In this document: positions 44,201 to 64,000 of the stretch, piece by piece
Position numbering within the stretch: the first letter of the stretch is position 1
How the letters are laid out: every line of letters starts with the position of its first letter
Origin: a virus
Length of the DNA stretch: 64,000 nucleotides
Reading direction: 5' to 3' (one strand)
Virus record (IMG/VR): IMGVR_UViG_3300045988_174371
Span: 160,001-224,000 of that record
Position numbers and translations under genes: made by a program
The notes under the pieces: model-generated
What the model was told of the DNA's origin: nothing
The model's input: the letters and a program-made list of their open reading frames with translations, nothing else
The model's database searches: none

Positions 44201-45117
44201 ATTTCCTGCATGACCTTGATGGGTAGGCTGGTGAACATGCCTGCGTTCATGAGGATTGCGAAGCCTGCCAGACCTGCACCTACAACGTAGAGGGCGTTGA
44301 TAGCGCCGCGCATGAGGCTCTTGTTCTTAAAGCCGAAGAAGTAAATACCTACTAGGATGATGATAAGCGCAATGGGGCCTACAAAGGGGTAATAGGCGCT
44401 GTTGGTGACCGCCCCTATAAGGCCCTTGTCATCCTTGCCGTCACCTGAGACTAGCTTGGTGACGTTGAATACACAGTCTTTGTCCTTGGGGTCAGAGCAC
44501 ACAGTGTGCGGGTTGAATGCGGCGGTTACGAAGTTCTGCGTCAGGTCGTATGCAAGACCAGTTACACCGTTGAGAGTGTCCGCGATACCGTTAAGTGCGC
44601 CGCCCACGAGGATAGTGCCCACTGAGCGTAGCTTAGTGAGCTTTTCGGAGTCTTTATTGATGGTTTTGGGTGCGCCTTCCATACGGTTGGGGTCGGCGGC
44701 TACCACGCCGTCTTCACCTTCGCCTTCACCTTCGTAGTTGGTGAATTTAATGTTGCCACCTACGGCTTCTTTAAGGGTGAAAATACGTCCTGTCTTGTCT
44801 TGCAGTGGTATGTTACTGAAGCTGTTTTCCCAGGCGTTTGGGTTATTCATGCCATGCCCGAGGTTTTGGGCTCCACCAAAGATGCCGATACCGCCTGCGC
44901 GGGCGGTTTCGGTGATGGTGATGGCGGGGCTTGAGCTACCGCTGGGTATGGTGACGCTCTTGGTAGTATTTGAGCCGCCGGTGGCTAGGTATATGGTCAG
45001 CAGGAGAAGCGATATGATGGCGGCAATGAGCGCCGCCGGGGTGTATCGGCGGCGTTCTTTCGTGGCTCCCTCATCTGGTGTTGGAGCTGAGCTGAGTGAT
45101 GTCTTGTTGAGTGCCAT
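41254..45117 (-). CDS. giant polytopic VirB6/TrbL-like T4SS membrane protein (paralog 3) with coiled-coil and P-rich tail
   Basis: 1287 aa. MTCTIWRVVRLDPYARAQFG and AAYQMYL modules shared with the other two paralogs. TM clusters. EERRK repeats. ~200-aa P/Q/T/K-rich C-terminus. Confidence 0.55.
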   Translation of the reverse strand: MALNKTSLSSAPTPDEGATKERRRYTPAALIAAIISLLLLTIYLATGGSNTTKSVTIPSGSSSPAITITETARAGGIGIFGGAQNLGHGMNNPNAWENSFSNIPLQDKTGRIFTLKEAVGGNIKFTNYEGEGEGEDGVVAADPNRMEGAPKTINKDSEKLTKLRSVGTILVGGALNGIADTLNGVTGLAYDLTQNFVTAAFNPHTVCSDPKDKDCVFNVTKLVSGDGKDDKGLIGAVTNSAYYPFVGPIALIIILVGIYFFGFKNKSLMRGAINALYVVGAGLAGFAILMNAGMFTSLPIKVMQEMGGAAMSISTSAGNEETGASKDGNTSSASAICKSTADNLSNSEKTVLSINSMTCTIWRVVRLDPYARAQFGRPFAQLDVKDPAMAEIIKKAEVDPNTFCVPLKVVGTPAEHRNKTLKLEESNHKVCNLAAYQMYLQTDAQLGDKANERKHGVDPRWYNVVAVAHADDRLWDNWSYSWTSASNRFMVTTVAMLSFVPIAIVMLLFSIASIIQLFTVVLMMILLPFIMLCLLDKQRGLSIAKRYGGFMLGAILSFILYSTLLAVGVIILSAIIDTVADLALVMVFNIIVAAALWKQRRQILTLAERSNPFSNNYVGNAIGNVLDRSNSANTLRNSVVGAVSGANFRSAWRNRNHVNEAGERSGFLRAVRENMQDAGKLAAEQSILSKKPNSMAAVALSTRRKLEAEKMEELQRYETAKKSEMENVRSDRELASNTVQYGQNATTAQANLEQVVASNANNAANTMRRTTENVQRLVLEFANSGDGTDRFYRETFADIFRAEQAMQTASHKRKLAEVVGDEYAATQARAEYNQARALKGMYEESLTMEQRNAYGEELNRLFQADPLLAKNKSAIEDEFAQARALDLQATQAGMETYRASTNANKSLDGLLEKEHQEQAQLAGQRARALAQNNPEVKKMGKAEALAFLDKAENAAIKKYLAENEIEEREGLALKMPQLNRLETPLQTLSTPEEHKQRLLDEQERLKEEERRKREEEERRKKEEEERRKREEEERRRQQENDEWDEAFSNLPKNPLTHQGNDGNPGNQSTHTDNSTGSQQQTEEPVRTFTPPIQPKFEQKLGNSTNPNSGNSEPKTEQPQPQATQPKPATPPLNKQEGNTLPKPQPPVKKEVPPTTANDQQAPATAQKPVAAPKPAGTPSAKTEVTPNPTAKTETKQAPPQPEKPKVEVPKPVPAEAKTAPIPTVTPSPKKAQEAQPRRNPLNNQAEPATGGKKFFKKAPQPIRQPQGSPINTPPKNETPTRRVDDSQ
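42008..42112 (-). repeat. imperfect tandem coding repeats (EEEERRK units)
   Basis: Encodes KEEERRKREEEERRKKEEEERRKREEEERRR. The DNA shows reiterated CTCTTCCTC / ACGACG units. Confidence 0.5.
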
Positions 45118-48135: not shown

Positions 48136-49362
48136 TTACTCGCCAGTGCTTACTGTTCTAACAATGTCGGAAGAGTCGGTGTCGTAAATGTCCGGTTCCA
48201 TGTTCGACACCAGGAACTTCTTATTGGGTTGCTGAGAGAGCGTCACTTTATATGTAACCGGGTAGGTGATGCTCTGCTTAGCGCTTTCCTTTGTTTCTGT
48301 GTCGGTACTGCCTCCTAGCTCATCAACCAGTTCGAGGTTTACCTTGGCGATGATGTCGCCGTTAGACTGTCGGTAAGCTTCGTAGGTGATGCTGTTGGTA
48401 TTGACGGTGTACTGACCACCGAAGCCGATGGTAGCTACACTCGACTTCTTAATATCAACGACATACTGAGATAGGTCGCCCGGCTTCTCGGGGGTAGCCG
48501 CCACATATGCCTTGAAATAGCCTTGAATGACGCTATCAAGGTCTGCGCTAGGTTGAACCCTTTCACCAGGGATGGTCTTGCTCTTCACTAGCTCTTGTGA
48601 CTTGCCCATTGAGAGTGAGGGGACGATGGCGGGGTGTGGGGTTGCGACGTAGTACTTGGAAGTTTTCTCGTTGTACGCTACGGTTACGGACATTGAGATT
48701 TGCTTCAGCTCAGCATTCTGGTTGTTGTTCTTAGCCGCATCCTTCACGGTGGTGCCTGTGCCGGTTGCGGATGGCTTGACCAGCGCTACCACACGGTAGG
48801 TTGCCAATGCGGAGTTCTTGTGTACGGCGACTCGCGTTACTTGTGGTGTGCCGATGACCTGCTGGGCTGAGTTGGCGGTGCTTGAGCGGATGTTGCTTGC
48901 GCCGTTATTGTCAGATGCCGATGATAGGCTGTCTCCGGTGAGGTAGAAGGCGAGCTGTTTCTCGGCGGTTTCGTCGGTTTTAAGGCTAAGGTATGCCTTG
49001 ACATAGTTCACGGCTATCTCTTCGCCAGCGGCTTTATTGAACCCGGTTTCTCCGTTTGCCGCGCGTGCTTTTGCGGCGAACTCTGCGTCGCTGAGCGTTT
49101 TAGGTAGGGTGTATGGGTGGATGATAGCGCTTGCAACACATGCGGCGAGTAGACCGCACACGGCAAAGGCGGTGATTCGCCCACGGGTTGCCCAGTTCTT
49201 ACTCTCTTTATAGAGAGGGTCGCCCAGGAATGAGACAGCGCCTTTTTCATTGTTGTTGGCGTAGAGGGTTTCCTCTTCGTCTGCGTGGAATGTGATGGGC
49301 TGTTCGGTGGGCGGTGTGGGCTTTACCGTTCGTTTGGAGCTGTGCTGACGACTGATAGCCAT
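48136..49362 (-). CDS. membrane-anchored conjugal transfer protein (TcpC/VirB8-like, inferred)
   Basis: 408 aa. TM ITAFAVCGLLAACVASAII, then an exo-domain starting AAGEEIAVNYVKAYLSL. Start overlaps the coupling-protein stop. Confidence 0.35.
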   Translation of the reverse strand: MAISRQHSSKRTVKPTPPTEQPITFHADEEETLYANNNEKGAVSFLGDPLYKESKNWATRGRITAFAVCGLLAACVASAIIHPYTLPKTLSDAEFAAKARAANGETGFNKAAGEEIAVNYVKAYLSLKTDETAEKQLAFYLTGDSLSSASDNNGASNIRSSTANSAQQVIGTPQVTRVAVHKNSALATYRVVALVKPSATGTGTTVKDAAKNNNQNAELKQISMSVTVAYNEKTSKYYVATPHPAIVPSLSMGKSQELVKSKTIPGERVQPSADLDSVIQGYFKAYVAATPEKPGDLSQYVVDIKKSSVATIGFGGQYTVNTNSITYEAYRQSNGDIIAKVNLELVDELGGSTDTETKESAKQSITYPVTYKVTLSQQPNKKFLVSNMEPDIYDTDSSDIVRTVSTGE

Positions 49363-51953
49363 TAGGGGGTGCCTTCCTTTGGTGTGCTTTGGTCTTTGCG
49401 GGTTTGGACGCTTTCAGAGATGACTCCGCTCATGTTTCGCGGCTGGAATTTGACGGGCGGTAGTTGCTCTGATGCCGGTTTAGCGGGTTGGGTTAGTCGC
49501 GGCTTTTTGGGTGTTTGCGGGGGTGTTCCTTTCGGAGCTTGAACGATTTTAGGTTTCTTCACCTTGTTCATAGCGCCTGCGGGGGTACTTGGGCGAGGTG
49601 GTGCCACCGGGGGCGTTACGGGAACTGCTACCTGCGGAGCTACCGGGGGCTTGCTCTTCGGTGCTTGAGCCTTGCTTACAGTGGGTTTGGTTCGCGCTGT
49701 GGTCGGCTTGCTCTCCCTACGCTTAGGCGTTGTGGTACCCTCTTGGGTCTGTGCCTTAACGCGGGGCTTTGGGTAGCGTTTCGGGGTGGTTGTTGTGGTG
49801 GGCGGGGTGACGGGTTCAGATGGTACGCGGGGGAGCTTGGTGAGTACCTGTTCGGGGAGGATGATGTGGGTGAGCGTACCGTCCATCCTTTCGCGTATTT
49901 CCTTGGTGATGGGGTCAGTGTAGGGGGTTTTGCGGATTATCATGCCTTCGGTGTAGAAGGAGCCCTTGTCTGGGTTTGGGCGGCGGAGGTTGATGAGCTG
50001 TTCCTCAGACACGCGGGGCACGATAGCCTTTTCGGAGGACTTGTAGTAGCGTCGGTTGTCGTCCCACTGGAGGAGGTTCTTCCAGATAACACGCTCTCGC
50101 TTTGAGTCCACCTTGTAGCGCCTGATTTCTTTGGTTCCAACGAGGGAGACGATTCGCTTTGCGGTTTCGCCGCCCTTCATGCCACCGAGCACTACTAGGG
50201 TATCTGCGTTTACGAGGAGGCTGTTCACTGCCGCAGGGTCGTTTTTCTCGTAGAGCTGTTCAAGGTTCTGCTGTCCAAGAGAGATGCCGACGTTAGATGA
50301 GCGCGCTTTTTCGAGTAGACCTGCGATGCTGGTTAGCGGGATGGTCTGAAACTCGTCAAAGAATATTTGGATGACGTTGAGTTTCTGGGTGTCGTCGCGG
50401 CGGCGGTGGGATGACATGCTTGTTAGGAGGCTTGCGAGCATTTTGCCGAAGCCGGTACTGACTTCCACTTCGGAGTCCGCGTTGAAGTCGAGCAGGACAA
50501 TGGATGGCTTCGCGCCGGGTGCGACGATTTCGTCAAAGTTGATGTATGGCTCTCCATTCTGGGGCAGACCTAGCCAGCGTCCGTATGCTGAATTAAGCAT
50601 GATGCTGACGTTTCCTCGGGGAGTCTCCCAGGAGTTCTTGATGTTGCCGGATGCACCTTCTAGGATGCGGCGGCGGAGGTCTGCGCCGGTTTTATTGCCT
50701 TCGGGAAGGTGGTTGAGTATGGCTTCCGGGTGCATGAGAGCGCCGCAGAATCGACGGAACTCACCGTTATGCCAAGGGACACCTGCTTGTTCCAGTTCGT
50801 CTGCGATGAGTGCGTATTCTGCGGGGTTACTGCGTTCTTTGCGTTTCATGTACACTTCAAGCTCATCTAGTGAGTTGAGGAGTATTTGGAGGGTTGCCCA
50901 AACGTCGTTCTTATATTTCTGAGCGTCGTCTTGGTACTTCTGGAAGCCGATTGCGATGTCCAGCTTCTCGGAAGGCTTCAACCCTGCGAAGGGGTCTAGG
51001 AATGCTGGGCCATGTGGATTGTAGGCGTTGTCGTATTCGCCGGTTTCGGGGTTACCTTGGGTGAAGTGGTAGAAGTTAATGTCTTCTTCGGCGGCGTAGT
51101 TCGCAAGTTTTCGGGCAAGCGCGAGGTCTGCCTTCATGTTCACTAGGATGCTGGTAATGCCTAGCTTTGCGTTGGCGCGGATTTCGCTTTCGGTGGTGGC
51201 GGTCTTACCGCTACCTGGGGAGCCGACTTTGATGACGTGGCGGGGAATTTCGGGGACGGTAAACCATACGCCTTCGCCTGACTCTTCGTTAATACCGTAG
51301 GCTACACCGGGGGACATGTCAGAGCGTTCGCCGGGTAGGATGAAGTTAGCGCCGGAGACGATTTGAGCTTCGAGCTTGTCGCGCTTGCGGCGTTGGAATG
51401 GGGTTAGGCGGTATTTGAACTTCTTCTCGCTCATCCAGAGTGAGTCGTTGTATTTAATCTCTTCGTTGTGGTCGTAGTCGTATTGGATTCTTACGGCTAG
51501 GAGCCAGCCTAGGAGCGACCCGAGGATGATGCCGCCTATGGTGAATGGCGCGCTGAATGAGCCCACCAGGTCGAAGATACCTGAGGGGCTGAGAAGGTAG
51601 TTGCCGGGGTTCTTGGTGAAGGCTGAGAAGGCGGCTGAGAACTTTTGAGGGATGTTCAGGATGAACCATAGTGCCAGCCCGACAAGGGCTGTTCCTCCCA
51701 TATAGAGTCCCACCTCGGATGCCTGCATCATCTTTTTGCGGGTGAGGTAGTAGTATGACCAGCTCACAATGATGATTACAGCGAACAGGGCGGGGCTACA
51801 GAGCACGAGTGCAACCAAGATGAGCGCCCATTTGGTGAGGGTGTATAGCAGACCTGAGATGAGGTCGCCGCCGCTGGAGCTATTTGAGGGGGGTGAGGTG
51901 TCGTTAGGGACTTCGTTACCTTCGCGCTGGTAGTTCAACGCTTCCTGGTTCAT
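49362..51953 (-). CDS. type IV coupling protein (VirD4/TraG family)
   Basis: 863 aa. N-terminal TM helices, VIKVGSPGSGKTATT (Walker A), VIQIFFDEFQ (Walker B), ~170-aa P/T/K-rich tail. Confidence 0.85.
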   Translation of the reverse strand: MNQEALNYQREGNEVPNDTSPPSNSSSGGDLISGLLYTLTKWALILVALVLCSPALFAVIIIVSWSYYYLTRKKMMQASEVGLYMGGTALVGLALWFILNIPQKFSAAFSAFTKNPGNYLLSPSGIFDLVGSFSAPFTIGGIILGSLLGWLLAVRIQYDYDHNEEIKYNDSLWMSEKKFKYRLTPFQRRKRDKLEAQIVSGANFILPGERSDMSPGVAYGINEESGEGVWFTVPEIPRHVIKVGSPGSGKTATTESEIRANAKLGITSILVNMKADLALARKLANYAAEEDINFYHFTQGNPETGEYDNAYNPHGPAFLDPFAGLKPSEKLDIAIGFQKYQDDAQKYKNDVWATLQILLNSLDELEVYMKRKERSNPAEYALIADELEQAGVPWHNGEFRRFCGALMHPEAILNHLPEGNKTGADLRRRILEGASGNIKNSWETPRGNVSIMLNSAYGRWLGLPQNGEPYINFDEIVAPGAKPSIVLLDFNADSEVEVSTGFGKMLASLLTSMSSHRRRDDTQKLNVIQIFFDEFQTIPLTSIAGLLEKARSSNVGISLGQQNLEQLYEKNDPAAVNSLLVNADTLVVLGGMKGGETAKRIVSLVGTKEIRRYKVDSKRERVIWKNLLQWDDNRRYYKSSEKAIVPRVSEEQLINLRRPNPDKGSFYTEGMIIRKTPYTDPITKEIRERMDGTLTHIILPEQVLTKLPRVPSEPVTPPTTTTTPKRYPKPRVKAQTQEGTTTPKRRESKPTTARTKPTVSKAQAPKSKPPVAPQVAVPVTPPVAPPRPSTPAGAMNKVKKPKIVQAPKGTPPQTPKKPRLTQPAKPASEQLPPVKFQPRNMSGVISESVQTRKDQSTPKEGTP

Positions 51954-51998
51954 GGTGTCCTTTACTTTCGTGAGTGTTTAGGGTTTACGGTTACTTTT

Positions 51999-52007
51999 CC
52001 TATAGCG
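51999..52007 (-). promoter_or_regulatory. -10-like motif CGCTATAGG upstream of the coupling-protein gene
   Basis: Lies in the divergent region, ~45 nt upstream of ATG 51953. Confidence 0.25.
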
Positions 52008-52051
52008 TTTGTTGCGGGTGGGGCGTATTCCTCGATGTGCCCTGCGGCTGA

Positions 52052-52060
52052 TGGTAGAAT
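52052..52060 (+). promoter_or_regulatory. extended -10 TGGTAGAAT
   Basis: 38 nt upstream of ATG 52098. RBS GAAAGGA. Confidence 0.4.
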
Positions 52061-52097
52061 TACTTTTATCTACTACTTCTTTTGAAAGGATTGCGCA

Positions 52098-53303
52098 ATG
52101 ATTTACGATGCGTTGGATTGGGGTGGCTTCGAGTTTCCCAAGGTTGAGGATTTCTTGAGGTTGCGCTCGCTTGGCTTGAAGGATTGCAGGTCTAAGTGCG
52201 ACTTTGAGGATTACAATTCTGGGCTTATAACGGATGTTCTGGGCGTTCCGACTGATTGGTTTGGTTGGCGTGTCAGTAATGCCTTTGGTGGTGGCGCTGA
52301 TGGGTGGTATGACGATATGAGGTCTGAGTATGGTTTCAAGGTGTGTGATGTTGCTGAGTTCTCAGGTCTTTCAGAGGATAATGTGGTTCAGCTGTATCGG
52401 GAAGGATGCCTGCTCGCTGAGCGTTCGTTGAAGGATGGGGAGCTACTTTTCCCGCCTATTCAGTTTGAGGATGTGGATGAGACGCGGCGCATTTCGCCTG
52501 AGTTCTTTGAGTGTGCCAAGATTTTGACGCGAGGCGGTTTTGGTGGTGAGCGGAGCGTGCATTTCTTGTTCTTTCCCACCACTAATTACGGGCTACTTAC
52601 TGCCGCTGAGTTGTTGAAGACTGGTGATGACGGCTTGCGGGCAATGGTTATTGCGGACACTCATAATTATGTTCTGAACACTTATGTTGAGAAGAGCGCG
52701 AACGAGTGGGTTGAAGTGACGAAGGGTTCGGTGCCTAATCCTGCTGTGGTTCAGGCTTTTGCTGGGTCTGGGTTCTTGGATGATTCGATGGTGGGCGAGT
52801 CAGATGGTGAGTTCATGTTTTCGGATGTTAGTAGGGTGTTGAAGATGAGTGAGGGGTTGATGCTTGCTCGGTCGCAGAGGGGAAGATGGGGTTATTCGGC
52901 GCGCTGGGGGCATGGGCTGTGTCATACGAGTGTTGCGCGTGCTTTAGGTTTGCCTGCTGAGGATGTTGTTTCGCTCTGCAAAAGCGGGGAATTGGTGGTT
53001 CTAGATGTGCAGGATATAGATGATGATTTCGAAGAAGCCTCTAGCTTGGAGTACACGGTGGCTGACTTTCACCTGCTGAGGGAAGGCTCTTGGGAAGAGG
53101 GCATTAAGGTTAGCTTGTGCCCTGCTTCTGTGAGGTTGGGTAGGGCGCTTCGGGAGTTGGGATGGTCACCTAGAGGTATTGCAAGCTTTATGGATTCGCC
53201 TTCGCCGTGGTTTGGTGTTGTGCCTCCGATAAGGTATGCGCGTCTTGGTGAGGAGTATGAGGCGACTGTGATTGCGGTTGCCGCCGCTTTGCCTTGCAGG
53301 TAA
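52098..53303 (+). CDS. multi-HTH protein with a DUF2384/MbcA-ParS antitoxin-like segment
   Basis: 401 aa. HTH-like VCDVAEFSGLSEDNVVQLYREG, FSDVSRVLKMSEGLMLA and TSVARALGLPAEDVVSLCKSG. FLFFPTTNYGLLTAAELLKTGDDGLRAMV resembles DUF2384. Confidence 0.35.
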   Translation: MIYDALDWGGFEFPKVEDFLRLRSLGLKDCRSKCDFEDYNSGLITDVLGVPTDWFGWRVSNAFGGGADGWYDDMRSEYGFKVCDVAEFSGLSEDNVVQLYREGCLLAERSLKDGELLFPPIQFEDVDETRRISPEFFECAKILTRGGFGGERSVHFLFFPTTNYGLLTAAELLKTGDDGLRAMVIADTHNYVLNTYVEKSANEWVEVTKGSVPNPAVVQAFAGSGFLDDSMVGESDGEFMFSDVSRVLKMSEGLMLARSQRGRWGYSARWGHGLCHTSVARALGLPAEDVVSLCKSGELVVLDVQDIDDDFEEASSLEYTVADFHLLREGSWEEGIKVSLCPASVRLGRALRELGWSPRGIASFMDSPSPWFGVVPPIRYARLGEEYEATVIAVAAALPCR

Positions 53304-53320
53304 TTAGGAAGGTGCGCAGG

Positions 53321-53363
53321 GAAGAGCCCTCTACTTGGTTTTTTGCCAGGTAGAGGGCTCTTC
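53321..53363. terminator. bidirectional terminator between convergent genes
   Basis: 14-bp stem GAAGAGCCCTCTAC / GTAGAGGGCTCTTC, followed by a T-rich run. Confidence 0.65.
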
Positions 53364-53376
53364 TTGTGTTTTGGGG

Positions 53377-55131
53377 CTATCGGCGGTTGCGGCGGTTTGC
53401 GCGGGTTAGCATTTTGAGGGTTGTGTTGAACTCGCGGGTGACTTGTTCGGGGGTGAGAGTTGTGCTGTCCGCTTTGGTGGGGGTGATGAGTAGTTCTGCT
53501 AGGGGTGGGTTGGTGAAGTTGTCTGGGTGGAGGGTTTTACCGGCATGGGTGAGCTGTACGGCTTCGTTGTAGAGGTGCTGGATGGTGGCTGGTAGTTCGT
53601 TCCAGACTGGTAGTTCGATGAGTTGTGCGTATGCGCCGTAGTATAGGGCAAGATGAAGGAGTTTGCGGGCGGCGAGTAGTTGCCTGTTGCCTGCTTCTAT
53701 TAGGGCGAGGGTGTTTGTGTAGGTGACTTCATCTTGGGTGTTTGTCCATTGGCGGGTTAGTGTGGTTTTGTTGGTTCCTTGGTGTTGGGTTTGCTGGCTG
53801 GGTTTGCGGTGGGTGGTGGCGTGGTTCGTGAGGGCTCGCTCTGCTTGGTAGGTGTTGGTGTTGGTGTATTGGGCTGTGGTGGTGATGATGAGTTGTTGGA
53901 GGGAGGGGGTTGTGGTGTTGTTCAGCATTGTTGCCGCTTCGTTGAGGAATGCGGTTTGGGTGGTGAAGCTTTGGGGGTTGTAGATGTTTGCGTAGTAGTT
54001 GAGCGCGGCGATGGTTAGCGGCTGGATTGCGGTGTTGAGGTGGTTGGAGAAGTTGGCTTGCCCGTACTGTTGGAGGTAGTCGCATGGGTCGAGGTTTTCG
54101 GGCATGGCTACTGCCCACGACTGCGCTTGGGCTTGTGGGGCAGTGTGGTATGCGGCGGCGGTGGCTTTCATGCCTGCCTTGTCGCCGTCGAGGATGTAGA
54201 TGATGTTCCCAGTTTCTCCGATAAGTCGCTGGAGGATTTTGATGTGTTGGGCGGTGATTGCGGTACCGCTGGTGGCGTAGACGTTGGTGTACCCGTTGTC
54301 GTACATTGCGATGACATCGAATTGTCCTTCTACGATGTAGCAGATGTTTGTTTCACGGGTGCGCTGGTTTGCGTGGGAGATGTTGGGGTTGTATAGAAGC
54401 TTTTCTTTTTCGAATATTGGGGTTGCGCGACCGTTCACGTATTTGCGTTCTTCGTCGGGGTTGAGGGCACGTCCAGTGAACGATACGGGGGTTCCGTGCA
54501 TGTCGGTAATGGCAAACATGAGGCGGTCGCGCCAGAAGTCGTATAGTTCGCCGGTGTCTTTGTTCTGGGAGCAGACTCCGGCTAGGGTTAGTTCGTGGGG
54601 GGTGTAGGTTTGGGTGAGATGCTTGGTGAGTGCGTTGCCGCCGGGGGCGTACCCGTAGTGAGGCAGGTTTGGGTTGAGGGCGCGTTTGGTGACCTGAGCT
54701 TTCGCGGGGTGGTTCTCAGGGAGGTTATCGTATTGTGCGGTGTAGAAGTTCCATGCGGCTGTGGTGATTTCTTTGAGTCGGCGGTTGCTGGTGACGTTGC
54801 CTTCGTCGGGGTTTCTTTTGGGTAGTTCGATGGGCGGTTGCGCTGTCTCGGCTAGGTATTCGATAGCGTCGGTGAAGTTGCCGCCGTTGGTTTCCATTAC
54901 GAGGCTGATAACGTCGCCGGATTCGCCGCAACCGAAGCAGTGGTATGTTCCGGTGAGGGTGTTCAGGTTGAAGGATGGGGTGTTCTCGTCGTGGAAGGGG
55001 CAGAGGGCTTTGGCGTTTACGCCGCTGATTTGGACGGCGGTGTCTTTGGTGTCGCGGAAGGTTTGTTCGAACACGTCGATGATGTCGTGTGCTTCACGTA
55101 CTTTCTGGATTAGTTCTTGGCTGTAGCGCAT
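53377..55131 (-). CDS. dnaG: DNA primase DnaG
   Basis: 584 aa. CPFHDENTPSF...CFGCGESGD zinc finger, TOPRIM YIVEGQFDVIAMY and YILDGDKAGMKA. T/N/Q/H-rich C-terminal half. Confidence 0.9.
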   Translation of the reverse strand: MRYSQELIQKVREAHDIIDVFEQTFRDTKDTAVQISGVNAKALCPFHDENTPSFNLNTLTGTYHCFGCGESGDVISLVMETNGGNFTDAIEYLAETAQPPIELPKRNPDEGNVTSNRRLKEITTAAWNFYTAQYDNLPENHPAKAQVTKRALNPNLPHYGYAPGGNALTKHLTQTYTPHELTLAGVCSQNKDTGELYDFWRDRLMFAITDMHGTPVSFTGRALNPDEERKYVNGRATPIFEKEKLLYNPNISHANQRTRETNICYIVEGQFDVIAMYDNGYTNVYATSGTAITAQHIKILQRLIGETGNIIYILDGDKAGMKATAAAYHTAPQAQAQSWAVAMPENLDPCDYLQQYGQANFSNHLNTAIQPLTIAALNYYANIYNPQSFTTQTAFLNEAATMLNNTTTPSLQQLIITTTAQYTNTNTYQAERALTNHATTHRKPSQQTQHQGTNKTTLTRQWTNTQDEVTYTNTLALIEAGNRQLLAARKLLHLALYYGAYAQLIELPVWNELPATIQHLYNEAVQLTHAGKTLHPDNFTNPPLAELLITPTKADSTTLTPEQVTREFNTTLKMLTRANRRNRR

Positions 55132-55178
55132 CTGCGGTTCCTTTGTCTGAGTGGTGGGGTGCCGGTTACTGTGAGAGT

Positions 55179-55697
55179 TTAGTAGTACGTGCCGAAGTCG
55201 TGTTGTCGGCAGACGTAGCCGAATCGGGCGGGGAGACCGTCTTTCGTAACGGGTTTAGCTTTCTTTGTCTGTTCCCATTGTTCGACTGCTTGGCTCCATT
55301 CTTTGAAGATGTTGTCGTATTGGCTGTTGAGAGCCATGAGCTCTTCGATGGTTTCCTGAGGCTGTTCTTCGTTGGAGTGTTCTAGGTGCGCGCGCTGGGC
55401 GGCTTCGAGCCTGGGCTTTGCAACTTCCAGCAGGTTCCTCATCTTATTGGTGGCTTCAGTAGCGGCGGTGGCGATGGTGCGGCGGCTACTGTCTTTAGTT
55501 TTGGATGCCCAGGCTTCAATTTCTCGGTTGGTGACCGACATAGAGGTGAGGATGCTAGTGACGGAGTTGGTGAGGGCGGTGTATCCGACAAGGATAAGAG
55601 GCGGGACAGTACTCATGATGTGGGAGTCTTTCTTTTGGATGTGTTTAGAGAGTCGTGCGGCACCCCTGAAACCAGTAGGTAGACAGGGGTGCCGCAT
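55179..55697 (-). CDS. hypothetical protein
   Basis: 172 aa from ATG 55697, or 146 aa from ATG 55616. Lies between nrdH and dnaG. Confidence 0.45.
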   Translation of the reverse strand: MRHPCLPTGFRGAARLSKHIQKKDSHIMSTVPPLILVGYTALTNSVTSILTSMSVTNREIEAWASKTKDSSRRTIATAATEATNKMRNLLEVAKPRLEAAQRAHLEHSNEEQPQETIEELMALNSQYDNIFKEWSQAVEQWEQTKKAKPVTKDGLPARFGYVCRQHDFGTYY

Positions 55698-55715
55698 TTG
55701 TTGTGTGGGGAGCTG

Positions 55716-56033
55716 TTACTGCTCGCTGGATTCGCTGATTGCCACCTTGAGCACGTCGGGGATGAAACCTGAGAAGCAGATTTCGTTCTCGTCGCTTTCA
55801 TGCTGGCTCACTCCGGGGAGGCTGAGGTAGCGTTCGGGGTGTTCCGTGCGGATGGTCACGATAGGTGCCTGCATGATGTTCGGGTAGCGGCTCTTGATGT
55901 ATTCCAGCTTCTCGGGCTGTTCGTCTACCTTGTAGTTGTCGTAGGTGATGCCTGCGCCGTCTAGTACTCGTGCAGTCTGCTTGCACTGGATGCATTTGTT
56001 CTTGCTGTAGACGGTAATCGTCGGAGTAGCCAT
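55716..56033 (-). CDS. nrdH: NrdH-like glutaredoxin
   Basis: ITVYSKNKCIQCKQTARVL (CxxC), APIVTI. Start moved to ATG 56033 (GGGAGAG RBS). The track start 56069 would abut the -10 at 56074-56079. Confidence 0.7.
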   Translation of the reverse strand: MATPTITVYSKNKCIQCKQTARVLDGAGITYDNYKVDEQPEKLEYIKSRYPNIMQAPIVTIRTEHPERYLSLPGVSQHESDENEICFSGFIPDVLKVAISESSEQ

Positions 56034-56073
56034 CGGGTTTTCTCTCCCTGGTTGTAGTTGGTGGGACATTCAT

Positions 56074-56108
56074 ATTCTACGTGTTCCGCCTTGGGTTTCA
56101 CAAGGCGG
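56074..56108 (-). promoter_or_regulatory. hairpin plus -10 TAGAAT for the nrdH-dnaG operon
   Basis: 7-bp stem CCGCCTT / AAGGCGG (56086-56092, 56102-56108). Minus strand then reads AACACGTAGAATATG. Confidence 0.35.
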
Positions 56109-56205
56109 TTAGGTGGGGCGTAAGTATTTTTCTTCTAGCCCCAGTATGTCATAGCGGTTTCATTGTGGTTCTAAGGGGTGTTTGGGTGGGTCTCTGGTGT
56201 GCTCT

Positions 56206-56327
56206 GTGGCTATTTTGTGGGGAGAGTGGCTATTCGTGGTGCCTTAGGGACTTTTCGGGGTTATATGGATGGTTTTTCGGTAGTGGTTTTTTGGTAGGTT
56301 TTTGGGGTTTGGGTGGTTTTTCGGTAG
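56206..56327 (+). repeat. iteron-like direct repeats
   Basis: GTGGCTATT at 56206 and 56226. GGTTTTTCGGTAG at 56271 and 56315, plus the variant GGTTTTTTGGTAG at 56285. Confidence 0.5.
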
Positions 56328-56537
56328 CTGAGGGTAGGTGTGGGTGGCGTGTTGCGTGGCGTGTTTGCGGGGGTCGGGGTGTGTTGTGGGGTGGTTCTAC
56401 TATTGATTAGTGATAAGACTTATCCGGGGGTGGTGTTTTTGAGGCTGTTTAGGGCTTTGCGATGGTCGGCTTTGATGATTTGCGCTCTGCCGCTGTGGGG
56501 TTAGTTGATGCTAGGCGGAGCCGTTGGTCTGCTGACG

Positions 56538-56551
56538 TTTTTAAAAATAAA
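56538..56551. other. A/T-only block (possible unwinding element)
   Basis: TTTTTAAAAATAAA. It is the only pure A/T run in a G/T-rich 667-bp non-coding region. Confidence 0.3.
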
Positions 56552-56563
56552 GGCGCAAGGGGG

Positions 56564-56569
56564 TATAAT
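56564..56569 (+). promoter_or_regulatory. -10 TATAAT upstream of the Rep-like gene
   Basis: GGGTATAATGG, ~165 nt upstream of GTG 56737. Confidence 0.35.
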
Positions 56570-56736
56570 GGTGGTTGAGTTTTTGGGGCGACCGTCGGTA
56601 TCCTGTAGGTGAGGAAAAGCTGATGGTGAGTGAAAATGGTTTTGCCGTCCTATTGGTGGTGTGCTAGACTGTTCCCAATCACATGTTATGAAGTAATCTG
56701 TTTGTTTTAAGTACCTCGGAGAAAGGAGGGTCACTC

Positions 56737-59283
56737 GTGGCTATGTCAGCAGTACGTGATGAAGACGCGGTTATGGTTCCGGTGGAGCCTGAGTCCGCGT
56801 CTGTTTTTGTGCCTGTAAACTCTGCCAAGGCGTTCACGGGTGACTCACTGTATCTGCGTGCCCGCCGTGAGGCTGTCCTTGCTCATGCTGAGAATAGGCG
56901 TGAGCAGGGTGCTGGTTATAGCCCGTACAGTGTCGTGGACTCTGACGGGTGCCTACTTCCTGAGAACGTTTCTGCTGAAGATGCTTTTGGAATGTATGTT
57001 GAGCGTGAGGCGTGGGTTCTGCCGCTTGCTTATGTGCATGGCGGTTTGCCGGTGTCTGCGCGTTCTGTTTCGGCTGGCTCTGCGTTTAATGAGCAGGGCG
57101 TGTGGGAGCGTTCTTCGTTGGCGCGTGTCGTTCAGCATGTGCCCTCTCCTGTTCTTGGGCTGAGTGGCGTTGAGTTGCTGGAGATGCCTTCGGGTGTGAT
57201 GGCGCGTCGTGCTTTGGCGTTTATTGCTTCACGTGTTCTGGAGACTGGTGCACGTGAGTTTGTTGTGCCTTCTCAGCCGCGTGCTTTGGCGCGTGTTGCT
57301 GGTGTTCCGGCGCTTTCTGCTGACGGGTATCGCCGGTTTGCTGAGGTGTTCCGTATGTGCCTTGGATTGAGGACTGCTGTTTATGACCGTGCGGCTGATG
57401 GTGGGCGTGGGGAGCTTCTTCATGCGTTCAGTGTTGGCGCGGATGTCTCTGACTCTTCGATGGGTATCATGTACAGCTTGGAGGGTAACGACTCTGGGTT
57501 CGCTGTGGTACGTGTTTCGGATGAGTTCTTTGATTACGTGAGCGGTAGCAATGTTGTGGCTATCCCTGCGTCTATGTGGGGTAGCCGGGTTGTGCGTTCT
57601 TCTGCTGTGGCGTTGGATGTTTTGGCGCTAGTTTTGGCGCGAGCTTCTGCCATGCGTGGCTCTTCTAAGGGCGGTAAGGCTTGGGTTGCTTGGTCGCATC
57701 TGGCGCGTCAGTTCGCTGTGTTCTCTTCCTCTGTACACAAGATGCATAGTGTGTACCGTAACGCGGTGAATGCTGTGCGTTCGCTGTTCGTACTGGAAGG
57801 CTCTGAGGACGTTGTTTCTCTTGTTGGTGGTAAGGGTAAGCGTGGTTTCTCTGGTTTCATGATTCAGGCGTACCGTTCTGCCCTGAAAGTTCTGCGCCCT
57901 CACGCCGTGAAGGTGGGCGATACGCTCTCTAAGCAGGTGCGTGGCGATGTTCAGAGGGAGACTTTGAATGAGTCTGCCGCTAAGGGTGAGCAGGTGCTTA
58001 TCCCTATCCGTGCACCCCGCAAGGGTAACATTTACCGTGCTGTAGACCTTGACCTGCTCTCTACCAAGATGAGCGGTAAGCTGGGCATTTACTTGCCTGC
58101 AATTAGCGAAGAATGGGAGCGTATTGTTGATACTGTTATCGACAGGTACGCCGCTTCCGCGCGCAACGGCAACCTCAAGAAGGTGAACAGCTGGCAGGCG
58201 TATGTTGAAGCGTCTATTAAGAACCAGCCCGCCCTCATGGACACCCCGAAGGAAGCGTCCACCCCTGTACGCCCCTCTCGCGCAATCCAGACCCCGAAGG
58301 TAACCGAAGACACTACCACTACCGAAAAGGCTGTCCAGGAGCCGCATGTAGCCGCTGACGGTCTACCGCGCCGCAACAGCGAGCAGACCCCGAAGACTTC
58401 CGCCGCTAAGCGTAAGGACAGCAACTTCGGTGCACCCTCACCCGTCTACATGTCCGAAGCGTTGGTGAAGAACTCCACCGTGAACACTTTCGACCTTCTC
58501 GATGAGAACTTCCTCAAGCAGTACATGAACGAAGACTGCATCATCACCCTTGACGTGGACACCCCCGAGTACTACGCATACTCTGACGCGCTACAGGCAG
58601 GAGCCGTGCCCGTAAATAACTACGAGCAGTGGAAGAAGGGCGTAAAGTTCCCCCCTGTCCGCGTGAAGCTCCCCTCCGGCGGCTACACCTACCTGAACGC
58701 CGGTAGCCGCTACACCAAGGGCGACGAATACTACTGCCGCGTCCTCCTCACCGAAGACTTCAGCAAGGACATCAAACGCACTATCTCCAACATCCGTGGA
58801 GACCGCCCTGTCACCCCCACCGAAGTTCCCATCCCCCCCGCGCCCGCCCCGGTTGCCCCTGTAGCGACTCCTGCACCCGTAACTCAGGTAGCAGAAACCA
58901 TTCCTCCGCGCCCTGAGTCGAAAAAGGAAGAGTCTGCTCCGGTATCTGAGCCTGCCGCACCCAAGAAGCGGAAGATTTGCTCCAACATGCCTAAGCATGT
59001 CGCTGAATCCCTCGCACCCTGGGACAAGGTGGACGCACACTACACCTACGTAGACGCGGAAGAAACCCTCGACGGCTACCTTGCGAACTTCAACGCTGAC
59101 CCGCTAGAGGCTGAAGTCATCAATGAGGCATCCCTGCCGCCTGTGGCTAACGAGGAGGAAGCAGAAGCTCGCGCCGCTATTCTGAAGTGGATTAACAACT
59201 CGAAGGACAGGAAGCCCCTACTGGATAGCATTATGAACCCCGCTCCTGAGCCTGACGACGAGTACCCCATCCTCAAGTACTAG
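56737..59283 (+). CDS. putative plasmid replication initiator (RepA-type winged-helix core) with long P/T/E-rich C-terminal half
   Basis: 848 aa. GTG with AGGAGG 7 nt upstream. ALDVLALVLARASAMRGSSKGGKAWVAWSHLARQFAV resembles the RepA_C-type core. Adjacent iteron-like repeats; a terminator follows. Confidence 0.45.
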   Translation: MAMSAVRDEDAVMVPVEPESASVFVPVNSAKAFTGDSLYLRARREAVLAHAENRREQGAGYSPYSVVDSDGCLLPENVSAEDAFGMYVEREAWVLPLAYVHGGLPVSARSVSAGSAFNEQGVWERSSLARVVQHVPSPVLGLSGVELLEMPSGVMARRALAFIASRVLETGAREFVVPSQPRALARVAGVPALSADGYRRFAEVFRMCLGLRTAVYDRAADGGRGELLHAFSVGADVSDSSMGIMYSLEGNDSGFAVVRVSDEFFDYVSGSNVVAIPASMWGSRVVRSSAVALDVLALVLARASAMRGSSKGGKAWVAWSHLARQFAVFSSSVHKMHSVYRNAVNAVRSLFVLEGSEDVVSLVGGKGKRGFSGFMIQAYRSALKVLRPHAVKVGDTLSKQVRGDVQRETLNESAAKGEQVLIPIRAPRKGNIYRAVDLDLLSTKMSGKLGIYLPAISEEWERIVDTVIDRYAASARNGNLKKVNSWQAYVEASIKNQPALMDTPKEASTPVRPSRAIQTPKVTEDTTTTEKAVQEPHVAADGLPRRNSEQTPKTSAAKRKDSNFGAPSPVYMSEALVKNSTVNTFDLLDENFLKQYMNEDCIITLDVDTPEYYAYSDALQAGAVPVNNYEQWKKGVKFPPVRVKLPSGGYTYLNAGSRYTKGDEYYCRVLLTEDFSKDIKRTISNIRGDRPVTPTEVPIPPAPAPVAPVATPAPVTQVAETIPPRPESKKEESAPVSEPAAPKKRKICSNMPKHVAESLAPWDKVDAHYTYVDAEETLDGYLANFNADPLEAEVINEASLPPVANEEEAEARAAILKWINNSKDRKPLLDSIMNPAPEPDDEYPILKY

Positions 59284-59292
59284 GCAGAGGCA

Positions 59293-59337
59293 CAGAAAAC
59301 CCCACCCACGCTTTCTATACGTGGGTGGGGTTTTCTG
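59293..59337 (+). terminator. rho-independent terminator of the Rep-like gene
   Basis: 18-bp perfect stem CAGAAAACCCCACCCACG / CGTGGGTGGGGTTTTCTG with a 9-nt loop. Confidence 0.65.
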
Positions 59338-59498
59338 TTGAGCCACGTACTGAAGGTATGCTCAGCTCAGGTTGGAGAAACACTTACGCCCCCAAACCTT
59401 AGGAAGGCTTGAGGGCGTAAGCTGTGAGAAGGCGGGGCACTCAACCCCTACCCAAACAATAGTTAAGCTATTGTCAGCTGTGTAATTATTATTCTACA

Positions 59499-60281
59499 CT
59501 AGCTTCCCGGAATGGTCAAGACCTGACCCGGAAAAATAAGATTCACATCGTAAATCACATCCACATTAGCGTCCGCAATAGCCTGATAGCCGCCTGCAAC
59601 ACCCAAACGGCTTGCAATGAGCGATAGCGTATCACCAGCAACAACCTGGTACGTGGAAGAAGCCGCAACCGGAGCCTTCACAGGGGCAACGGCAGGAGCC
59701 GGAGCCTCAGTAGCAACCGGGGCGACCGGAGCAGACTCAACAGCCGCAGTAGAAGCCGCATCTGCCGAAACAGCAGGAGCCTCAACAACAGGGGTAACTG
59801 GAGTAGCTACAGCAGGAGCCGCCGGAACGGTGGCAGGAGCCGGAGCTACCGGAGTCTGCACAGTGCCCTGAGGAGCAACTACCGTAGAAGTAGTAGCCGC
59901 CGGAGCAGACTGAACTGCACCAGAGTTAGAGTAGGTGGGGGTTGCCGCGCCAGACAAACCGTACTTGGCAGTACAAGCGGGCCATGCGCCCCAACCCTGC
60001 AAAGCTAGAAGACGCTCACCAGCTTCAATCTGAGCCTCCTTGGAAGCGGTGTGCGGAGAACCGCTCATACCTACACCATTCCAAGACTGCTGAGTGAACT
60101 GCAAACCGCCATAGAAACCGTTACCAGTATTGATAGACCAGTTACCACCCGACTCACACTGAGCGAGCTTTTCCCACGTAGCAAGGTCAGCGGCATTAGC
60201 CGAAGGAACCGCAAGTGCCCCAACGGAAAGACCACCAAGTGCAAGAGCTACAGCGGTACGACGAATGGAAGTGTTCTTCAT
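59499..60281 (-). CDS. rpf: resuscitation-promoting factor (Rpf transglycosylase-like domain + LysM)
   Basis: 260 aa. Signal peptide, CESGGNWSINTGNGFYGGLQFTQQSW, A/P/T linker, C-terminal LysM YQVVAGDTLSLIASRLG. Confidence 0.9.
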   Translation of the reverse strand: MKNTSIRRTAVALALGGLSVGALAVPSANAADLATWEKLAQCESGGNWSINTGNGFYGGLQFTQQSWNGVGMSGSPHTASKEAQIEAGERLLALQGWGAWPACTAKYGLSGAATPTYSNSGAVQSAPAATTSTVVAPQGTVQTPVAPAPATVPAAPAVATPVTPVVEAPAVSADAASTAAVESAPVAPVATEAPAPAVAPVKAPVAASSTYQVVAGDTLSLIASRLGVAGGYQAIADANVDVIYDVNLIFPGQVLTIPGS

Positions 60282-60613
60282 AATACTCCTTAGGGGTGCC
60301 CTCGCTCGCCCCGTCCCCAGGGCTCAAACGCGCCTCCGCCCGCCCCTCTTTGTTAAAGTGGGCTAAGTTTCTAGTTCAGCTTCGTGGGCGGCTCATCACC
60401 CCATCAAAATCACCTTTGAACAGTACCAGCCGTAAAGCGCGTGCTCTCAGCTAACACTAAGGTGACCATCCGGCGTGAGGGCGTGAAGAAGAACCGGGCA
60501 CCTTCACCATCTAACCAAACGGTATGTGGCGAAGATACGAGTAACTGCTAGTCAAAGCGGTTACCAGAAAACATGATACCTGGGTTACCTGCTAGAGGCA
60601 ACCCAGCTCTACA

Positions 60614-60657
60614 CATATAGCAAACGCCGGAAGCTCACAGGGAACTCCCAGCGTTTG
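60614..60657 (-). promoter_or_regulatory. weak hairpin plus extended -10-like TTTGCTATATG upstream of rpf
   Basis: 7-bp stem CAAACGC / GCGTTTG. The motif at 60614-60624 lies ~330 nt upstream of the rpf ATG. Confidence 0.35.
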
Positions 60658-60692
60658 AAGGTTCAAGTTTTTTCGGTGTGCCACGCGCCTGC

Positions 60693-62831
<2,139 letters not shown>

Positions 62832-62860
62832 CTATCCTACAAACCTCCTTCATAAATGCT

Positions 62861-62900
62861 GATGGTTCCCCGGCACTCCTAAAAGCACCAGGGAACCATC
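62861..62900 (-). terminator. hairpin after 62913-63791
   Basis: 10-bp stem GATGGTTCCC / GGGAACCATC with a 20-nt loop. Confidence 0.4.
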
Positions 62901-62912
62901 ACAAAACAATAC

Positions 62913-63791
62913 TTAGCCCAACACTCCAGCAGGAACCCTATCCACCCAACCAGAGCCAGAGAAGGCACCGGCGGGCAACCCGCAAGCAGACTCCAAAGCG
63001 CGAGCATACTCACGCCCCCTCAGCCTAGCAGACCGTGCGACATGAAGCATAGCCTGCACATCATTACGGGAATACGCCGCCCGCATCTTACGAACACACA
63101 TCTCCACATAATCATTAACATTGGGCTTCGGCGGCTCCACCCTAAAATCAAGCACCCTCACAAGCTCACAAGGAACCGGCGAACCTACCTGACCAGTAAA
63201 CGTCTTCATCACATGCCAAGCATCTACAGCCCACACCTGAGCCGTAGAGCCATCAGGAAGCTTCACCGGCACCTTCTTAGCGAAGCCACGGTCAATAACC
63301 CACTGACGCGGCTTCCCCAACTTCCGTTCCCGAGAACCACACGGCTGTTCACGGTCAATATGGAACCACCAACCACCATCAGCCATAAGCGCCCTAAAAG
63401 CCCCCGGCGACAAGTGAAAATAAGGTGCAATCATATGGGGCAACACAAATACGCCAGGCTTAACATTCGCAGGAATGGTCTGGTTCACTGGAATACGCTT
63501 CACATGCACCGGCGAGTTTACTTGCAGAACACGCAACAGCTCCTTCATGTTCCACAACTGCTGGCGGTCACAGAAAGCAACAATCTGAGAACGGCTCATC
63601 TTCTCAGTCGTCTTACCGCCCGCAAGGTAACCGCCACGGGTTAGTGCGGCAAGAACCTCATCCCGCCCAATGTTGAAGCCAGCGACCGCCTGCTGAGGCG
63701 GCAAATACATCGGCTTAGCCCCCGAAGTATGCAAAGCAATCGGCGTAGGAAGGGTCTTCACCTGCAACTCACGCTGAGACTTAGTGCGCAT
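62913..63791 (-). CDS. hypothetical protein
   Basis: 292 aa from ATG 63791 (GAGGAG 7 nt upstream). The track's TTG 63842 start is less likely. Confidence 0.5.
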   Translation of the reverse strand: MRTKSQRELQVKTLPTPIALHTSGAKPMYLPPQQAVAGFNIGRDEVLAALTRGGYLAGGKTTEKMSRSQIVAFCDRQQLWNMKELLRVLQVNSPVHVKRIPVNQTIPANVKPGVFVLPHMIAPYFHLSPGAFRALMADGGWWFHIDREQPCGSRERKLGKPRQWVIDRGFAKKVPVKLPDGSTAQVWAVDAWHVMKTFTGQVGSPVPCELVRVLDFRVEPPKPNVNDYVEMCVRKMRAAYSRNDVQAMLHVARSARLRGREYARALESACGLPAGAFSGSGWVDRVPAGVLG

Positions 63792-63887
63792 ATAGAATCT
63801 CCTCAATGTCTTTAATAACGAGTTATGGCAACTTCCAAACAAGCCCCCACATTTACAGACAATGGGACATTCACCAACCGCCGGTAT

Positions 63888-64000
63888 CTACGAGGTCTTG
63901 CTAGAAGAAAATACTCCCTCAATTATCGCATAAACCAGCTTGGAAAGCACACTAATCAGCAAGAAGACAGGAATGAGGACACCAGAAACCAACGAAGTCA
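63888..64000 (-). CDS. 3' end of a hydrophobic protein gene (partial, runs off right edge)
   Basis: Open frame ...TSLVSGVLIPVFLLISVLSKLVYAIIEGVFSSSKTS* ending at 63888. Confidence 0.3.
   Translation of the reverse strand, partial: TSLVSGVLIPVFLLISVLSKLVYAIIEGVFSSSKTS

Follow-up and report, generated by a model that had tools for sequence, protein, structure and literature searches.

Strand asymmetry at bacterial replication origins (ori) and termini (ter) is the closest described counterpart of the feature reported here, a reversal of base composition inside the gene for a predicted Rep-like replication initiator. The gene lies in a 64,000-nt stretch of DNA (hereafter the window; positions 160,001 to 224,000 of IMG/VR record IMGVR_UViG_3300045988_174371) and belongs to what appears to be a giant conjugative plasmid-like element. 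As at an ori or ter, the sign change is sharp, G and T rise jointly, and the signal is found at synonymous sites irrespective of coding direction. C>T and A>G affect one strand together, as on the leading strand of mismatch-repair-deficient Actinobacteria. Unlike ori/ter asymmetry, the bias is local and peaks at the boundary, and it has a terminus-type sign inside an initiator gene beside iterons. Its four-fold skews are 0.56-0.61, whereas those of actinobacterial chromosomes are about 0.

Other known systems share some of these features. The initiators RctB (Vibrio chromosome 2) and RepE (mini-F) resemble the predicted protein in their tandem winged-helix core and in the direct repeats upstream of the gene, and RctB, too, is large, extends beyond the core at both its N and C terminus, and is encoded on a large secondary replicon. 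The gene studied here, rep, differs from both in having no sequence similarity to them, iterons of ~14 nt, and no AT-rich element or DnaA boxes that we could find, and its origin is putative. Vertebrate mitochondrial DNA (mtDNA), which replicates by strand displacement, shows the same two deamination-type transitions, a G/T-enriched strand, amino acid usage dragged along by the bias, and grading by position; the magnitude here is comparable or greater. However, mtDNA has one sign, whereas here opposite boundaries lie 66.7 kb apart and one related clade (F) has kilobase-scale blocks of both signs. Fork barriers occur on plasmids, as in R6K ter/Tus and the EBNA1 repeats at oriP of Epstein-Barr virus, and fixed termination near or asymmetric to an origin would yield unequal arms and a sharp terminus-type switch. 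Unlike these barriers, the boundary here is within coding sequence, and we found no Ter-like sequence, terminator protein or conserved motif at it. Inocles are giant (~350 kb) extrachromosomal elements of human oral metagenomes, with 24-32% GC and a Streptococcus host, in which gene orientation switches at the skew-predicted ori and ter (PMC12340149). The present element is also giant, extrachromosomal and recurrent in oral metagenomes, but it has 51-54% GC, actinobacterial-type genes and no gene-orientation switch at the flip; identity with Inocle was rejected on GC and organization (the InoC marker was not searched for). Overall, the asymmetry described below is distinct from known ones in being local and graded, larger, located inside an initiator gene with a terminus-type sign, and paired with a near-saturated opposite boundary.

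The following features of the window are needed to describe the switch:
56737-59283, + strand: rep, predicted by fold match to encode an 848-aa Rep-like initiator; a rightward gene within a long leftward array
58030-58420, no strand: transition zone in which the G/T-favored strand changes from + to -, placed by skew and codon profile and by the homologous position in related clades
49362-58030, + strand: left zone, with a G/T-rich + strand, comprising the T4CP gene, the gene at 52098, dnaG, nrdH and the first ~430 rep codons; G or T (keto) fraction at four-fold sites 0.74-0.83 on either coding strand, with C>T and A>G favored on +
58420-64000, - strand: right zone, with a G/T-rich - strand, extending at least 39 kb past rep, with G>A and T>C favored on +
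53377-55131, - strand: dnaG primase gene (Pfam), third-position skews +0.73 and +0.69 on the + strand, the strongest bias on the left side
60693-62831, - strand: NAD-dependent DNA ligase gene, ligA (Pfam), third-position skews -0.35 and -0.70, a bias opposite to that of dnaG

On the + strand from 51 to 58 kb, 2-kb windows have a GC skew of +0.28 to +0.41 and a TA skew of +0.25 to +0.42; beyond 58 kb both are approximately -0.1 to -0.25 throughout the rest of the window. Within the window, the cumulative skews have their maxima at 58,137 (TA) and 58,210 (GC). The original prediction, made from the sequence alone, had described a sign change near 58.0 kb, and it is apparent in the sliding, cumulative and third-position skews alike; the base counts made by hand at that stage (G26 C7 T19 A8 at 53401-53460, G11 C19 A20 T10 at 62101-62160) are exact. 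Codons 1-493 of rep have T163 G85 C37 A18 at four-fold sites (82% G/T-ending) and codons 494-848 have C87 T44 G31 A28 (39%; Fisher p = 8e-22). The change-point statistic for the gene is 102, compared with a maximum of 49 among 20,000 permutations. The GC skew at third positions changes sign at codons ~421-440 (58.00-58.06 kb) and the TA skew collapses at codons ~461-481, while third positions are roughly neutral (52%) at codons ~440-560 and 15-38% keto afterwards. The transition therefore spans ~58.03-58.4 kb, at the place first proposed (58.0-58.15 kb) but slightly broader.

The bias follows the strand and not the coding direction, as had been claimed: four-fold keto is 0.80 in the + strand gene 52098-53303, 0.83 in neighboring minus-strand dnaG, and 0.22-0.26 in the minus-strand rpf, ligA and 62913 genes. 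A G/T-rich + strand everywhere to the left of ~58.0 kb had also been suggested, which holds near rep but not over 0-50 kb. The weak positive skew there is largely not strand asymmetry, because nearly all of the genes are on the minus strand and prefer C-ending codons. Amino acid usage within rep also shifts across the flip, from 0.36 to 0.22 for G/T-type residues and from 0.14 to 0.32 for A/C-type residues. Because it tracks the bias, part of the skew in the C-terminal part of rep comes from codon position 2. Overall, the switch shows an abrupt change of the strand that accumulates C-to-T and A-to-G, under a very strong, site-anchored mutation pressure of replication type.

This pressure acts at present. 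Singleton differences between close relatives were polarized at four-fold sites and pooled over four clades (rates on the + strand per 1000 sites). Left of the flip, C>T exceeds G>A (155 versus 91), A>G exceeds T>C (125 versus 77) and G>T exceeds C>A (61 versus 20). Right of the flip the spectrum is mirrored, with G>A at 124 versus 83 for C>T, T>C at 108 versus 76 for A>G, and C>A at 45 versus 23 for G>T. The equilibrium composition calculated from these rates has the same sign as the observed composition on both sides, so the pattern is neither a decaying relic nor the result of codon selection, and the view of the flip as a mutational signal is borne out by recent substitutions. No elevation of neutral divergence was seen near the flip; divergence of the relatives is dominated by mosaic recombination.

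The switch is also conserved. The exact rep protein is present on five contigs, of which the window's own is 360,715 bp and derives from a human oral metagenome, and 38 rep homologues (38-97% identity) are collinear end to end. The window's contig is ERZ989713 k127_64826, with reads in ERR589675; on it the flip falls at ~155.0 kb and the second boundary described below at ~221.8 kb. Among 43 related loci taken from metagenome assemblies, 25 full-length loci in four clades (protein identities of 97-100%, 75-76%, 55-59% and 44-49%) show the flip, with the keto skew inside rep going from between +20 and +45% to between -10 and -25%. Clades A, C, D and E switch at equivalent positions in the gene, corresponding to window codons ~420-495; in clade B the change is less sharp and reaches further 3'. 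Clade D (~47% identity) has a local flip only and clade F (~40%) has none. Close relatives (L058 versus L059; L001 versus L010 and L051) have four-fold divergence of 0.01-0.28 across 2-kb bins, which indicates frequent recombination among the element lineages; such mosaicism adds to the patchiness of the bias blocks.

Synonymous divergence among the related loci has no dip that would mark a large embedded cis element in rep. One short stretch is a weak candidate cis site, and is only suggestive:
58033-58050, + strand: TAC CGT GCN GTA GAC CTT, synonymous identity 0.68-0.71 versus a median of 0.46-0.47; about sixth of 150 windows and not significant alone
An inverted iteron inside rep (repeat I1) was rejected as a functional site, as it is conserved in no clade and is probably a by-product of the mirrored composition.

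None of Pfam, PHROGs and NCBIfam gives a match for the rep protein, nor does a profile search against PDB sequences. We modeled the structure of residues ~95-505 (predicted template modeling score 0.60) and searched the PDB with Foldseek. The best match is to RctB domains 2-3 (E=1.4e-5, prob 1.0, TMt 0.52), and the top 31 PDB matches are all to RctB domains 2-3, RepE54 or Rep, which are iteron-type initiators; an earlier model of the full-length protein gave the same fold assignment. Based on these models, rep is predicted to be an iteron-type initiator with a tandem winged-helix fold like that of RctB and RepE. The open reading frame had been called Rep-like, and this is supported at the fold level. 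Only rep and 52098-53303 run rightward in an otherwise leftward, conserved array. Several signals flank rep:
56271-56327, + strand: three exact iterons (13-mers, GGTTTTTYGGTAG), the sole zero-mismatch copies in the window, 400-470 nt upstream of the rep start
56540-56569, + strand: promoter-like site for rep, TTTAAA-18-TATAAT, 10 of 12 matches
56720-56739, + strand: ribosome-binding site and rep start codon, downstream of the promoter-like site
59292-59338, no strand: perfect 19-bp inverted repeat (I2) with a 9-nt loop, directly past the rep stop, between the convergent rep and rpf genes

All six clades have a related iteron family upstream of rep, at a distance of 300-580 nt, so the iteron-like repeats noted at the outset are a conserved feature; in the window they lie 1.7-2.1 kb from the switch. 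The inverted repeat past the stop codon is probably a bidirectional terminator. No 100-nt window below 42% GC that could serve as an AT-rich unwinding element was identified in rep or its upstream region, and no DnaA-box clusters were found at rep. A single DnaA-box-like site, TTATCGACA at 58136-58144 (8 of 9 matches), coincides with the cumulative TA-skew maximum; it is compatible with chance, given 0.44 such matches per kb in the window. The dif-like core ATAA-N6-TTAT is absent throughout the window, and neither a Ter-like motif nor a terminator protein was found. The orientation of the skew at rep (G/T-rich to C/A-rich along the + strand) is of terminus type, and not the cumulative minimum of an origin.

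How far does the bias extend? Between them, a 99%-identical IMG/VR contig of 306,861 bp and the window's own contig cover ~124 kb around the flip. Right of rep, four-fold keto of minus-strand genes is 0.17-0.28 at 0-12 kb and 0.31-0.44 out to +39 kb. To the left it is 0.83 at -3 kb, 0.74 at -7 kb, ~0.65-0.7 at -10 to -30 kb and ~0.55-0.6 beyond. The baseline without asymmetry is 0.54-0.67 for minus genes and 0.34-0.52 for plus genes, a difference that is due to a coding-strand preference for C-ending codons. The strand component, obtained by comparing genes on opposite strands, is ~0.25-0.3 up to 10 kb to either side of the flip, ~0.1 at +16 to +39 kb and ~0 beyond -72 kb, with a value of ~+0.16 from a single gene at window position 2.3 kb. 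By -30 kb the left arm is down to roughly the baseline set by codon preference, and it does not rise again until close to a boundary at -67 kb. Because the strand component peaks at the flip and decays with distance, the bias is organized around the flip and not spread evenly over replichores. The original prediction of a replication-polarity signal, if taken as a replicon-wide replichore switch, thus does not hold.

The boundary at -67 kb is the second of the element:
window position ~-8,600 (~20,300-20,600 in related locus L058; ~13,300 in L060; ~142,361 in IMG/VR contig 174689), + strand: second skew boundary, of origin-type sign, located by skew
At this place, which is 66.7 kb to the left of the flip, G+T on the + strand rises from 20-25% to ~90% within ~300 bp, and adenine is 1-2% over 2.3 kb. 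Composition recovers within ~5 kb to the left and ~9 kb to the right. Genes beside this boundary have four-fold keto of 0.94-0.99 or 0.07-0.15, whatever the coding strand. The jump falls in ~1 kb of noncoding DNA that includes a T-rich stretch of low GC. The A/C-rich side carries, 250-550 bp from the jump, two copies, 245-247 bp apart, of a ~247-bp unit with the palindrome AAAATCAACC-N6-GGTTGATTTT; the unit is conserved in clades A and B. No Rep iterons or DnaA boxes were found at this boundary. As a side observation, the ~90% G+T segment L058:18,100-20,400 (window ~-8.4 to -6.1 kb) is nearly stop-free in all six frames, and gene callers choose a putative G/V/W-rich product on one strand, while the opposite strand could be read as a long, P/T/K/N-rich low-complexity protein.

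Near-saturated blocks also occur in clade F. A minus-strand gene of 413 codons (L006:3206-4447) has third positions A121 C284 G6 T3, with the G's confined to ATG and TGG codons. Along a co-oriented kinase-PP2C-VWA-sortase row (L006:16,900-21,350), third-position keto goes from 0.93-1.00 to 0.00-0.07 and back to 0.97, and the block edges switch within ~300 bp, inside genes. A flip beside a Rep-iteron module, as originally described, is present in the window, but two related clades (D and F) keep the module without the full flip. In clade F, where rep is unflipped, two SocA/Panacea-domain genes and a small + strand gene lie between rep and rpf (L006:12,156-13,603).

The carrier is, from its gene content, a predicted giant (300-380 kb) conjugative plasmid-like element. 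Conjugation-type genes encode a VirB4-like ATPase, a T2SSE ATPase and a TraG/TraD-type coupling protein, with TcpC in relatives; there are also CD3337/EF1877-type membrane proteins, an M23 peptidase and a lysozyme. Two large proteins without a Pfam family (1340 and 1287 aa; 27563-31585 and 41254-45117) have a weak match to CD3337/EF1877 mobilome membrane proteins. The element encodes its own replication and repair genes, namely DnaB, DnaG, LigA, NrdH, a DEAD helicase and an SbcC-like protein, of which dnaG, nrdH and ligA adjoin rep. Among the large proteins of the window we identified no terminase, portal or capsid genes (PHROGs, Pfam), only the M23 peptidase and the lysozyme domain. A phage packaging end (pac/cos) was rejected as an account of the flip, as structural and packaging genes are lacking and conjugation genes are found instead.

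The element is very common in human oral metagenomes. Relatives are on contigs of 230-440 kb, within which the position of rep varies. More than 100 variants of LigA alone occur, on contigs of up to 380 kb, and everything retrieved with LigA was another copy of the element. Four contigs of this kind are filed in IMG/VR as putative viruses. No similar elements were detected in PLSDB, INPHARED or 185,579 representative genomes (GTDB), and no description of the element or of local bipolar bias zones was found in the literature searched; the element appears to be undescribed. An actinobacterial host is suggested by a GC content of 0.51-0.54, together with an Rpf-type transglycosylase and kinase/PP2C/sortase genes.

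What could produce such a boundary? Our preferred explanation, possible but somewhat short of probable, is that the flip is the boundary of a replication-direction-dependent mutation pressure, at which forks of opposite direction end inside rep. The boundary and its conservation are observed, as are the mirrored spectrum, the iterons and the fold match of Rep; fork directions, stalling and head-on conflict as the cause of the position are inferred, as follows. The strand running 5'->3' toward the boundary would gain G and T via C>T and A>G. A leftward fork would be co-directional with the long leftward gene array until rep, and would stall at the first head-on transcription, inside rep. A rightward fork would pass the Rep-iteron module and arrive at the same place. 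While forks stalled or waited there, several kilobases of lagging-strand template (the + strand to the left, the - strand to the right) would lie exposed, and this would account for the peak of the bias next to the boundary. The constant sign of the right arm over at least 39 kb and the origin-type boundary 66.7 kb to the left favor this explanation, and the absence of a large conserved DNA element at the flip suits a position set by gene orientation and not by a site.

The assignment of fork directions depends on a calibration and on the general rule, both of which make the G/T-rich strands leading. In NucS-deficient Streptomyces, mutations on the leading strand are A>G 1150 versus T>C 412 and C>T 715 versus G>A 274, while the wild type has no detectable strand bias (PMC11109965). 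NucS cuts only G/T, G/G and T/T mismatches (PMC11109965). A 3:1 strand bias predicts an equilibrium keto fraction of ~0.75, and 0.75-0.83 is found beside the flip. The sign had been read as that of converging forks, and this agrees with both the usual rule and the polarity of mismatch-repair-deficient Actinobacteria.

Several observations weigh against converging forks. Skews of actinobacterial chromosomes are close to zero, with an excess of C on the leading strand in two of them; their sign is a poor guide in this group and does not by itself tell origin from terminus. A Rep-iteron module is the expected place of an origin and not of a terminus, and the dif-like and Ter-like motifs and the terminator protein sought were not found. 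The bias scales with distance to the flip in rep and not from the putative origin at -67 kb, and to the left of that putative origin the sign is negative for ~5 kb only, after which the strand component is ~0; a simple origin-terminus pair with uniform polarity therefore misfits. Further, clade F has flips of both signs inside leftward genes, independent of gene orientation, and clades D and F have the same gene order without the full flip.

A rather unlikely alternative is that the flip marks a Rep-iteron origin with inverted polarity, from which forks leave within or beside rep, with the leading-strand template exposed or less repaired. Such inversion could result from a leading strand that starts late after helicase loading, or from the selectivity of NucS, which removes G/T mispairs and leaves A/C mispairs in place, so that the errors left over would invert the usual sign. 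The RctB/RepE-like fold, the iterons present within 2 kb in all clades, and the adjacent dnaG, nrdH and ligA are what an origin would have, and the bias is centered at rep and decays on both sides (from 0.25-0.3 to ~0.1 and ~0). The skews of actinobacterial chromosomes and the mismatch range of NucS also leave room for an inverted sign. However, that sign is contrary to the general rule and to the polarity of NucS-deficient Actinobacteria, and the switch lies 1.7-2.1 kb from the iterons, in a gene, without an AT-rich element or DnaA-box cluster. Clade F has Rep and iterons but no flip, and the opposite-sign boundary at -67 kb would require a separate explanation.

The site-anchored zones, their two opposite polarities and the extreme single-strand mutation, with C>T and A>G at or near saturation in synonymous and noncoding positions, may instead reflect an unconventional way of replicating giant actinobacterial plasmids and not ordinary fork polarity, a reading that we consider unlikely. 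This mode would involve long-lived single-stranded DNA from uncoupled or strand-displacement synthesis, possibly with escape from NucS, and one of the zones would be centered in rep.

Recurrent breakage is a doubtful explanation. A double-strand break in rep, or a fork-collapsing nick, followed by 5'->3' resection would expose 3'-ended strands to deamination, an evolutionary analogue of the strand-switching mutation clusters at resected breaks. The strands that are 3'-ended at the site are those that gain T and G, the decay over kilobases to tens of kilobases fits the length of resection tracts, and the element encodes an SbcC-like protein and helicases and has mosaic relatives with frequent recombination. 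Yet no conserved cleavage site was found, no nuclease or relaxase gene was identified nearby, and there is no sign of raised neutral divergence at the site, though mosaic recombination dominates divergence. The right-hand plateau of at least 39 kb is also more like fork polarity.

Transcription is more doubtful still as the source of the bias. Deamination of the non-template strand would place the flip where rightward transcription (rep, 52098 and read-through) meets leftward transcription of the long array downstream, and R-loops formed by G-rich RNA could reinforce it. Consistent with this, rep is convergent with all downstream genes, shifts are larger in genes whose coding strand is the G/T-rich strand, and the sharp, saturated, gene-scale blocks of clade F suit a bistable, self-reinforcing process. 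However, dnaG, nrdH, T4CP and several genes at -67 kb are biased against their own direction (minus genes, keto 0.83-0.99), so dominant antisense transcription across dnaG, T4CP and others would be required. In bacteria the skews associated with transcription are small, in Actinobacteria about zero, and a strong terminator-like hairpin separates rep from rpf.

An artifact or relic, whether a chimeric join, the breakpoint of an old inversion, recombination between donors of different bias or codon selection for translation, is scarcely credible, despite the mosaic lineages and the patchy blocks of clades D and F: misassembly at 58.0-58.15 kb, which the original prediction had wanted excluded, is ruled out by the same protein on five contigs, the switch in 25 loci assembled independently, from different samples, and the continuous, conserved protein with its homologues; inversion or recombination is ruled out by a present substitution bias that agrees with the current sign on either side; and codon selection is ruled out by neighbors on opposite strands with opposite codon endings and by equally biased noncoding DNA.

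Strand asymmetry routinely serves to call ori and ter, and a terminus-type switch inside an initiator gene means that such calls can mislead. The bias is locally saturated, reaching 100% of four-fold sites in some genes and ~90% G+T in noncoding DNA, and the mutation pressure is able to reshape both codon and amino acid usage inside one protein. The element is also a natural setting in which to study how sequence is shaped by fork direction, by single-stranded DNA and by the NucS-type mismatch repair of Actinobacteria.

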